DNA of 64,000 nt, taken from Escherichia coli. Lineage in GTDB: Bacteria; Pseudomonadota; Gammaproteobacteria; Enterobacterales; Enterobacteriaceae. Numbering within the stretch: the first letter of the stretch is position 1; every line of letters starts with the position of its first letter. The DNA is taken from the NCBI RefSeq assembly GCF_024502345.1, contig NZ_JALDNN010000001.1; one strand, given 5' to 3'. Made by a program: the position numbers and the translations under genes. Under the pieces are notes generated by a model. That model made no database searches and was not told where the DNA came from. It worked only from the letters and a program-made list of their open reading frames with translations. Below are positions 2,809 to 3,249 of the stretch, piece by piece.

Positions 2809-3249
2809 TCACTCATAATCAGAACAAGATGATGATGTGCCCTGAGATATAAGAAAATCATCAAGAGAACCTCCGGCTTTTATTGCTTCTGCAATAACAG
2901 AAGGCCGACGACCTTGTCCACTCCAGTACATTATTTGACCGTTATACTCATACCTGTACTTATTAGACTCTCCTGAATCGTTTTTTCTGCCCGTCTGTAA
3001 TTTTTTGCCAAATTCACGATACACATCTTCCGCCGTTACACCTGCGTCATCCATGTACTTTTTGATAATTGCCAAAGAATCCTTCAACTCATTACGCTGC
3101 TCAATGGCCTTTTCAAGGTTATCCTTAACTTGATTGAAGTCTTCATCAGACATTTCCATGATCAACTTCCGGACAAGGTTGGAATTAAGAAGTGATGTAC
3201 GAACAGTAGCGAGATCTTCATTCTCAACAGAAAACTTCTTCTTGCTCAT
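2809..3249 (-). CDS. H-NS-like nucleoid-associated protein (H-NS/StpA paralogue)
   Basis: 146-aa ORF; C-terminus YWSGQGRRPSVIAEAIKAGGSLDDFLISQ matches the H-NS DNA-binding motif (TWTGQGRTP ... SLDDFLI); N-terminal coiled-coil-like region. Confidence 0.75.
   Translation of the reverse strand: MSKKKFSVENEDLATVRTSLLNSNLVRKLIMEMSDEDFNQVKDNLEKAIEQRNELKDSLAIIKKYMDDAGVTAEDVYREFGKKLQTGRKNDSGESNKYRYEYNGQIMYWSGQGRRPSVIAEAIKAGGSLDDFLISQGTSSSCSDYE

Follow-up and report, generated by a model that had tools for sequence, protein, structure and literature searches.

Homologues of the silencer H-NS in enterobacteria were sorted by a 2020 survey into the clades H-NS, StpA, Hfp, HlpC and HlpP, together with six plasmid clades (PMC7544231). 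Of the silencer homologues encoded by islands, those reviewed for E. coli are H-NST, Ler and Hfp alone (PMC7074111). Hfp is known to heteromerise with H-NS (PMC2814080), and Ler is a 123-aa protein whose similarity to H-NS is limited to the C-terminal domain (PMC7074111). HlpC is reported to keep R12, R15, L26, L30 and R93 of H-NS and to be present also in Citrobacter, Enterobacter, Klebsiella and Salmonella (PMC7544231). On plasmids, it is Sfx and not H-NS that represses R6K conjugation, positive selection having acted on the oligomerisation and DNA-binding interfaces of Sfx (PMC11796372), and both Sfx and HppX-CROD2 prefer to bind their own plasmid (PMC13250579, PMC13308145). Here we describe an H-NS-family gene that lies on a CP4-like tRNA island in a stretch of 64,000 nucleotides of Escherichia coli DNA (contig NZ_JALDNN010000001.1; we refer to this whole stretch as the window). 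Sequence comparison indicates that the gene belongs to a deeply divergent, unnamed and unstudied lineage resident on E. coli islands, and that it is no close copy of H-NS or of any named paralogue.

The gene is an intact open reading frame (ORF) at 2809..3249 on the minus strand that runs, in the ORF listing, from an ATG start through 146 codons to a stop without interruption. Its translation is 100% identical to RefSeq WP_000038137.1, annotated as 'H-NS family nucleoid-associated regulatory protein', and is divided as follows.

Residues 8-85 (nt 2995-3228, minus strand): N-terminal helical domain
Residues 86-96: linker between the N-terminal and C-terminal domains
Residues 97-134 (nt 2848-2961, minus strand): C-terminal DNA-binding domain, Pfam PF00816
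Residues 135-146: acidic, Ser-rich tail of 12 residues after the C-terminal domain

The Pfam model PF00816 (Histone_HNS) matches residues 97-134 over positions 2-38 of its 38 (E-value 1.1e-11; 44.7 bits, the gathering cut-off being 25.6 bits). Matches found by phmmer among PDB sequences are confined to C-terminal domains, namely those of StpA (3.7e-7), of H-NS from E. coli and Salmonella (1.1e-6 and 1.5e-5) and of Ler (1.5e-3). The minor-groove loop of the 146-aa protein reads S110-G-Q-G-R-R-P116, and W109, Y98 and K97 are all present; in an alignment of 64 family sequences Y98, W109, G111, G113 and P116 are invariant, while Q112 and R114 are retained, R114 being found in 59 of the 64. In an AlphaFold2 model built with this 64-member alignment (mean predicted local distance difference test score, pLDDT, 83.9) the C-terminal part consists of strands at 98-102 and 105-109 and helices at 117-124 and 129-132, with a pLDDT of 93-95 over the 10-residue blocks covering 101-130, and is preceded by a low-confidence linker. 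The top Foldseek match in the PDB is 2L93, the C-terminal domain of Salmonella H-NS (probability 1.00, root mean square deviation 1.6 A over 42 columns, 43% identity). With the Pfam C-terminal domain, the loop and Trp/Tyr core and the C-terminal fold all found, the assignment of the 146-aa protein to the H-NS family is solid. Because the protein has the H-NS fold and keeps every residue of the minor-groove loop, it should bind AT-rich DNA as H-NS does.

An earlier note made from the letters of this DNA had predicted a 146-aa protein with the H-NS C-terminal signature at 2809-3249. Both the coordinates and the signature are confirmed exactly, the DNA-binding residues proving to be conserved and the reading frame uninterrupted. 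The note had also called the protein an H-NS paralogue and had named Hfp and Sfh beside H-NS and StpA for comparison. Here family membership holds, but the protein is not comparable to such close relatives of H-NS as Hfp and Sfh. When it was aligned with H-NS and StpA of MG1655, H-NS2/Hfp of enteroaggregative E. coli (EAEC) 042, the Sfh-type protein of pHCM1 and HppX of the IncX3 plasmid pKP13d, identity was 29% to H-NS, 29% to StpA, 26% to Hfp/H-NS2, 32% to Sfh and 35% to HppX. The NCBIfam equivalog models for StpA (47.5 bits, cut-off 202) and H-NS (34.4 bits, cut-off 211) score far below their cut-offs, and the protein is therefore a family member that is an orthologue of neither.

The N-terminal domain is where the protein departs most visibly from its named relatives. 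AlphaFold2 places helices at 8-21, 23-32, 35-69 and 73-85, in the same order as helices 1-4 of H-NS and with pLDDT above 90. The structural comparison supports the DNA-binding fold, and for the oligomerisation domain the resemblance to H-NS goes no further than the order of the helices. Twelve additional residues precede the position of H-NS helix 1. The equivalents of H-NS Arg12, Arg15, Leu26, Leu30 and R93 are Asn24, R27, F38, K42 and E94, respectively, and the equivalents of Leu33 and Arg40 are kept. Two of the five site-1 dimerisation residues are thus identical to those of H-NS, the changes R12 to N and L30 to K being non-conservative and L26 to F conservative. Allele B, a second allele introduced below, has Asp in place of Arg12, so that this Hha-contacting arginine is absent from both alleles. 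Every alignment with the named H-NS proteins also opens an 11-column gap within helix 3, which is about three turns shorter here. From a conserved Asn (H-NS N10) to a conserved Gly (H-NS G69) the span is 48 residues, compared with 59 in 47 of the 64 family members, among them H-NS, StpA, Sfh and HppX3; Hfp/H-NS2 aligns to H-NS in this region without a gap. Short spans also occur in some distant, non-enteric full-length members of the family, and the feature is therefore unusual and not unique. The linker of the window allele carries a net charge of +3, compared with +6 in H-NS, and has the substitutions R90 to D and R93 to E; we do not regard this acidity as a trait of the lineage, as the linker of allele B is normally basic.

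When 1.84 billion cluster representatives were scanned in full with HMMER, only one other full-length cluster exceeded 50% identity, P0121, a 144-aa E. coli allele (allele B) that is 62-63% identical to the window protein (allele A). Beyond P0121 the scan gave fragments only, and the remaining cluster representatives were at most about 42% identical. Database names in both clusters are E. coli or Enterobacteriaceae only, and a phage collection contained just two weak, partial matches to the H-NS-like protein. When the 441-nt gene was used as a query against 5,426 complete E. coli genomes, allele A was found in 143 at a nucleotide identity of at least 95% and allele B, at about 76% nucleotide identity and full length, in 188, including ABU 83972 and A0 34/86; a full-length copy of the lineage is accordingly present in 331 of these genomes (~6%). 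The 505 matches across the E. coli genome records are without exception chromosomal, and a separate plasmid collection contained only two records with the gene, one being a 62-kb circle with the content of an island. Full-length copies occupy several tRNA sites (selC, pheU and near fec). For allele A, the sites of the CP4-like island are selC in strain 219, pheU next to cadC in M159-1, FDN-4 and the window, and a place next to the gsp/yghD genes in Res13, and the IS-flanked module (IS, insertion sequence) is 99-100% identical in the 133 genomes that carry allele A at 99% identity or more. A metagenome contig from ENA encodes an intact recombinant (P0119) in which the N-terminal half of allele B is joined to the C-terminal half of allele A.

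A codon comparison of the two alleles gave 0.55 synonymous (dS) and 0.25 nonsynonymous (dN) substitutions per site, a dN/dS of 0.46; the first 90 codons are free of indels, and at this dS neither allele is frameshifted or stopped. Over codons 1-30 alone dN/dS is 0.25. The comparison indicates that the N-terminal domain is under purifying selection. It also bears on the length of the protein, which RefSeq gives for identical DNA either as 146 aa (WP_000038137.1) or as 116 aa starting from Met31 (WP_001342701.1; loci L011 and L012, 20001-20351). We reject the internal start and take the 146-aa form to be the real one, because allele B has Thr at the position of Met31 and because codons 1-30 are conserved.

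We favour, as somewhat better than an even bet, the reading that the gene encodes a functional accessory silencer of the H-NS family that travels as cargo of CP4-like E. coli islands, is insulated from H-NS and Hha and is focused on its own element. Through its N-terminal domain the protein would associate with itself along DNA and silence transcription. Because Arg12 is replaced by Asn and Leu30 by Lys, and because helix 3 is 11 residues shorter, the protein would most likely form its own homo-oligomers, fail to recruit Hha and co-polymerise poorly with H-NS and StpA. It might then serve as a silencer dedicated to its element, or as a 'stealth' factor, in the way that Sfx and HppX serve their own IncX plasmids, and would not be a spare H-NS. 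More speculatively, its preferred targets could be the AT-rich DNA of its own island, including its own promoter and the leaders of more than 1 kb that precede two YagK/YfjJ-like genes.

The gene sits within 768 bp of native DNA (2611-3378) that is bordered by IS21 and IS256 remnants on one side and by IS2 and IS256/IS1414-type remnants on the other.

1752..2426, plus strand: IS21 istA fragment, a C-terminally truncated transposase (NCBIfam transpos_IS21, 1.3e-51; RefSeq)
2350..2610, minus strand: IS256-family remnant, N-terminal part of the transposase only (RefSeq 'IS256 family transposase, missing C-terminus')
2611..2808, minus strand: native 3' flank, common to the remnant locus of E. coli 55989, in which no terminator-like hairpin was found
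3250..3378, minus strand: retained 5' flank, 28.7% GC, ending at the left end of IS2
3379..4125, plus strand: IS2 remnant, TnpA/TnpB frameshifted and internally deleted (NCBIfam TnpA 8.4e-20, TnpB 1.3e-54)
4404..4996, minus strand: C-terminal fragments of an IS256-family (IS1414-type) transposase (NCBIfam transpos_IS256, 1.4e-27 and 2.8e-10)

The IS256-family N-terminal fragment as annotated by RefSeq covers 2350-2541. The end of the remnant at 2610, which abuts the 3' flank, was placed where homology to E. coli 55989 resumes, window positions 2611-3018 being 89% identical to the locus of that strain by blastn (locus L010). On the other side the TnpA and TnpB fragments of IS2 cover 3425-4125, and we take the left inverted repeat of IS2 to lie at about 3379, on the basis of the IS2 terminal repeat. 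Homology between alleles A and B, as determined by blastn against two allele B loci (L009 and L003), covers the gene from its stop codon onwards and continues for 106 bp beyond the start (3250-3355), where it ends. Within this upstream homology is the invariant block AAATCACCTGATAGGATTT, which contains the extended -10-like sequence TGATAGGAT at 3285-3293; we infer that the latter is a putative promoter element. We also note that the IS256/IS1414-type remnant contains, 1.5 kb from the H-NS-like gene, a complete ORF for a 38-aa EAST1 (astA) variant (MPSTQYIRRPTSSYASCIWCATVCASCHGRTTKPSLAT; 4744-4860, minus strand), which is below the 40-aa limit of the ORF list. The same DNA is annotated as 'heat-stable enterotoxin EAST1' in strain FDN-4 and is flagged as astA in the record CP057032.1.

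Two long AT-rich blocks lie on either side of this module, each directly 5' of a minus-strand gene.

31..597, minus strand: YagK/YfjJ-like ('inovirus-type Gp2') gene 1, named by RefSeq, with Pfam matches under the cut-offs
598..1689: AT-rich ORF-less block 1, 34.9% GC, longest stop-to-stop frame 63 aa
6217..6948, minus strand: YagK/YfjJ-family ('inovirus Gp2 family') gene 2 (Pfam YagK_YfjJ_C, 4.1e-36)
6949..8615: AT-rich ORF-poor block 2, 37.9% GC, longest stop-to-stop frame 112 aa

For gene 1 the two Pfam matches that fall below the cut-offs are REP_ORF2-G2P (4e-5) and YagK_YfjJ_C (7.5e-4). The GC content of the window is 51.5%, and the 1-kb stretches that are richest in AT anywhere in the 64 kb are found in the two blocks. 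The earlier note had situated the gene in acquired DNA between IS remnants and had pointed to two large AT-rich blocks without ORFs; the IS21, IS256, IS2 and IS256 fragments identified through NCBIfam and RefSeq, and the composition of the two blocks, agree with this description. Block 2 has an equivalent in ABU 83972 at 84% identity. In E. coli 55989, which is without the IS21 and IS256 fragments, blastn places block 1 at a distance of about 300 bp from the gene's 3' flank, and this IS-free arrangement, with block 1 beside the H-NS-like gene, is probably the older one. Between positions 1 and 10000 Rfam gave no match at its gathering threshold, and a search for repeats (seed 12, minimum 25 bp) found neither direct nor inverted ones; neither the two blocks nor the two IS256 pieces are recognisable as repeats. 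Given their composition, the blocks are plausible targets for any H-NS-type protein, and the proposal of the note that they would be natural targets of silencing modulated by the paralogue is reasonable as a hypothesis. They could also serve as extended leaders with a regulatory function, or as origins used by the Gp2-like proteins.

How well do these data accommodate a functional silencer insulated from H-NS and Hha? For it speak the frame that is intact in both alleles, the conserved 106-bp upstream region and the 143 and 188 full-length carriers. A number of observations weigh against it. Foldseek found no credible match in the PDB for the N-terminal helices, and the N-terminal Pfam model PF22470 (Histone_HNS_N) scores 20.2 bits, under its cut-off of 24.5. 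The acidic changes in the linker, R90 to D and R93 to E, which allele B is without, might weaken DNA binding. The high-affinity H-NS motif of the Lang type (TCGATAAATT, at least 8 of 10 positions) matches 0 times in one AT-rich block and 1 time in the other, showing no enrichment. A scan around the gene detected no canonical sigma-70 promoter in the 5' flank and no credible terminator, and IS2 cuts the upstream region 129 bp from the start codon. The dN/dS of 0.46 corresponds to moderate constraint only, and recent spread, in place of selection, may explain why allele A is nearly 100% identical from genome to genome. The gene is also dispensable and often decays: about 100 genomes have only a remnant of its 3' half (~91% identity), as in E. 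coli 55989, where a 71-aa C-terminal stub annotated as H-NS family (locus L010, 12001-12216) lies beside a frameshifted helix-turn-helix gene. A search of the literature returned no report of expression, binding or a phenotype for this protein. Taken to its limit, such decay would make the gene a passenger, a functionless relic of the island caught between IS fragments, silent in transcription or without consequence, and intact only through the recent spread of its module. The IS remnants on both sides, the truncated upstream region, the genomes with only a remnant, the 99-100% identity of allele A in 133 genomes and the failure of the scan to find a promoter would all fit. We nevertheless consider this very improbable, given that the two alleles are separated by a dS of 0.55 without a frameshift or stop, with dN/dS below 0.5 overall and 0.25 in the first 30 codons, that the proximal upstream block is conserved and that the recombinant allele P0119 is likewise intact.

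If the protein is functional, it might still act otherwise than as an insulated silencer. The loss of Arg12 and Leu30, a helix 3 with 11 residues fewer than that of H-NS, StpA, Hfp, Sfh and HppX, and a linker that is less basic in the window allele (net +3, against +6 in H-NS) would suit an anti-silencer resembling Ler, which would bind AT-rich DNA and, being unable to build silencing filaments, would displace or disrupt H-NS and so activate island genes; Ler itself is the precedent for an H-NS-family activator encoded by an island (PMC7074111). Yet four N-terminal helices are predicted with pLDDT above 90, including a helix 3-turn-helix 4 that matches site 2 of H-NS, the C-terminal domain is far closer to StpA and H-NS (3.7e-7 and 1.1e-6) than to Ler (1.5e-3), the linker of allele B is normally basic, and shorter helix-3 spans are found in other full-length members of the family, all of which leave an anti-silencer of this sort rather improbable. 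At the other extreme the protein could be a co-polymer or back-up of the Hfp or Sfh type, which would form mixed oligomers with H-NS and StpA and top up their pool so that the island does not titrate H-NS. Its domain order is that of H-NS and it keeps the equivalents of Arg15, Leu33 and Arg40; a stealth function is established for Sfh, and Sfx, though divergent, still interacts with H-NS, StpA and Hha (PMC11796372). Against such mixing, three of the five site-1 residues differ from those of H-NS (R12 to N, L30 to K, L26 to F), the 11-residue deletion alters the spacing of the two oligomerisation sites, and Arg12, which is needed for Hha binding, is absent from both alleles. We judge co-polymerisation of this kind unlikely, and a simple 'back-up H-NS' role is doubtful because Arg12 and Leu30 are lost and helix 3 is 11 residues shorter. 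A bolder version of insulation, for which we see only a small chance, is that the protein is the founding member of an H-NS lineage of its own, confined to islands of Escherichia, whose re-spaced oligomerisation domain (helix 3 shorter by 11 residues, a longer helix 1 and no Hha-contacting arginine) would build filaments that exclude H-NS, StpA and Hha. The protein would then show 'cognate element specificity' on a chromosomal island, as HppX and Sfx do on IncX plasmids, and would control the AT-rich leaders of the YagK/YfjJ-like genes, taken in this case to be Gp2-type genes resembling replication initiators; in this way it would govern how active the CP4-like element is.

Beyond the IS remnants, a constant neighbour of allele A is the following gene.

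5011..5889, minus strand: Mrr-type restriction endonuclease gene (Pfam Mrr_cat, 1.3e-5)

Allele B is found elsewhere in the same kind of island; a dGTPase defence gene adjoins it, and it lies upstream of ProQ/FinO and AlpA-like genes. At the allele B loci (L009, 9678-11580; L003, 1671-3572) the consistent neighbours are a dGTPase-family protein (PADLOC, 1.9e-109) and a 189-aa protein of unknown function. This neighbourhood suggests that anti-phage defence genes, too, have their place in the variable cargo region with the H-NS-like gene. No PADLOC defence-system model matches the H-NS-like protein, the Mrr-like enzyme or two large unknown ORFs; the only match is the dGTPase of ABU 83972. A tblastn search of the 64-kb window, with Hha and Cnu probes among the queries, revealed no Hha or Cnu and no second H-NS-like gene. 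We note, in addition, the record CP057032.1 (pRHB40-C01_2), a 62-kb circular 'plasmid' that has no replicon or relaxase typing and consists of the same island content: a YeeU/CbtA module, both YagK/YfjJ-like genes, the Mrr-like gene, the H-NS-like gene and K88-like fae fimbriae. This circle may be an excised island or an artefact of assembly.

Other observations concern the far end of the island and the core chromosome in the window. At 17862-18629 and its flanks (about 17600-18705) a single IS1 joins the DUF4942 end of the island directly to dcuS, so that about 10 kb that in other strains contains cadC-cadB-cadA-dtpC-lysU-ghoST-yjdJI is missing. This junction is present in none of the 5,426 complete E. 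coli genomes. Deletion of cad as a 'black hole' is typical of Shigella and enteroinvasive E. coli. Rfam matches in the core chromosome are STnc630 and three copies of naRNA4, which is REP-derived (38156-38321, 43988-44164, 46640-46720). A stretch of 58-63% GC at about 45-55 kb (44800-55600) is presumably the phn operon and not foreign DNA, to go by the gene order and gene sizes after proP, yjcZ and crfC.

Accessory H-NS homologues govern the tolerance of mobile DNA and the timing of its expression. Recent work shows some of them (Sfx, HppX) to be element-selective silencers and not spare copies of H-NS. The islands that harbour the lineage described here also carry fimbriae, EAST1, restriction enzymes, a dGTPase defence gene and toxin-antitoxin modules. 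If the protein is indeed insulated from H-NS and Hha, it would show, on a chromosomal island, how histone-like silencers can partition niches among themselves, and helix 3, naturally shortened by 11 residues, would be useful as a probe of the geometry of H-NS filaments. If it is just another redundant silencer, its recognition is an ordinary finding at the level of annotation.

Among the named clades the protein has its highest identity to HppX/Sfx, 35% over residues 9-144 of the comparison with WP_073991201.1 of pKP13d. The two have in common an N-terminal extension ahead of helix 1 (ENETFDATRKLLLN and ENEDLATVRTSLLN, respectively), a Ser-rich acidic C-terminal tail (ASSSAGDEQ and TSSSCSDYE) and a non-basic residue at the position of R93, and both are carried by mobile DNA. 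HppX, however, retains Arg12 and the standard helix span of 59 residues, and is encoded downstream of topB on IncX plasmids with, for the most part, an RGR loop (PMC11796372), whereas the window protein has a QGR loop and is encoded on a chromosomal island without topB as a neighbour, on which grounds we reject its identity with HppX/Sfx. BLAST scores to all other clades fall in a narrow band of 55-65 bits; because HppX at 65 is barely above the many other members at about 60, the resemblance is suggestive and a specific sister relationship is not established. Nor is the protein HppH/Sfh of the IncH plasmid clade, given 32% identity to the pHCM1 protein, R12 and L30 that are not conserved and places that are chromosomal.

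Like Hfp (also H-NSB or H-NS2), which is found on the serU/asnW island of uropathogenic E. coli and EAEC, the protein is full length, encoded by an island and sporadic in pathogenic E. coli. It differs from Hfp in that Hfp has an H-NS-like N-terminus (NNIRTLRAQARE), a helix 3 of standard length and a basic linker; identity to WP_001278198.1 of EAEC 042, which RefSeq names only 'H-NS family' and which we took as H-NS2/Hfp from its position ~33 kb from stpA, is 26%, where membership would require more than 90% (PMC7544231), and the CP4-type island lies at pheU/selC and not at serU/asnW or EARL. Ler is likewise an H-NS-family protein encoded by an island, and its N-terminal region is likewise divergent, being shorter than that of H-NS. 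The match to the C-terminal domain of Ler (1.5e-3, against 3.7e-7 for StpA) and the absence of genes of the locus of enterocyte effacement from the window set it aside, and H-NST, a truncated antagonist consisting of the N-terminal domain only, is set aside by the full C-terminal DNA-binding domain. HlpC is a sporadic chromosomal H-NS-like protein of some E. coli, with little sequence change among its carriers (PMC7544231), and in this resembles the lineage described here; we set it apart by its published description only, the window protein having N24, R27, F38, K42 and E94 and database names that are all E. coli. The accession of the window protein was found in no indexed paper, the gene is absent from the H-NS-family papers and surveys that we searched, and papers on pheU, pheV and selC islands make no mention of it.

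With H-NS and StpA, lastly, the protein shares the two-domain architecture, the W-x-G-Q-G-R-x-P loop and, over the region aligned by Foldseek, ~43% identity to the C-terminal domain of Salmonella H-NS. It differs from them in 12 more residues at the N-terminus and 11 fewer in helix 3, in the replacement of Arg12 by Asn and of Leu30 by Lys, and in its acidic tail of 12 residues. The kind of protein, a member of the H-NS family, is already known, and what is new is an unnamed and uncharacterised lineage of it.

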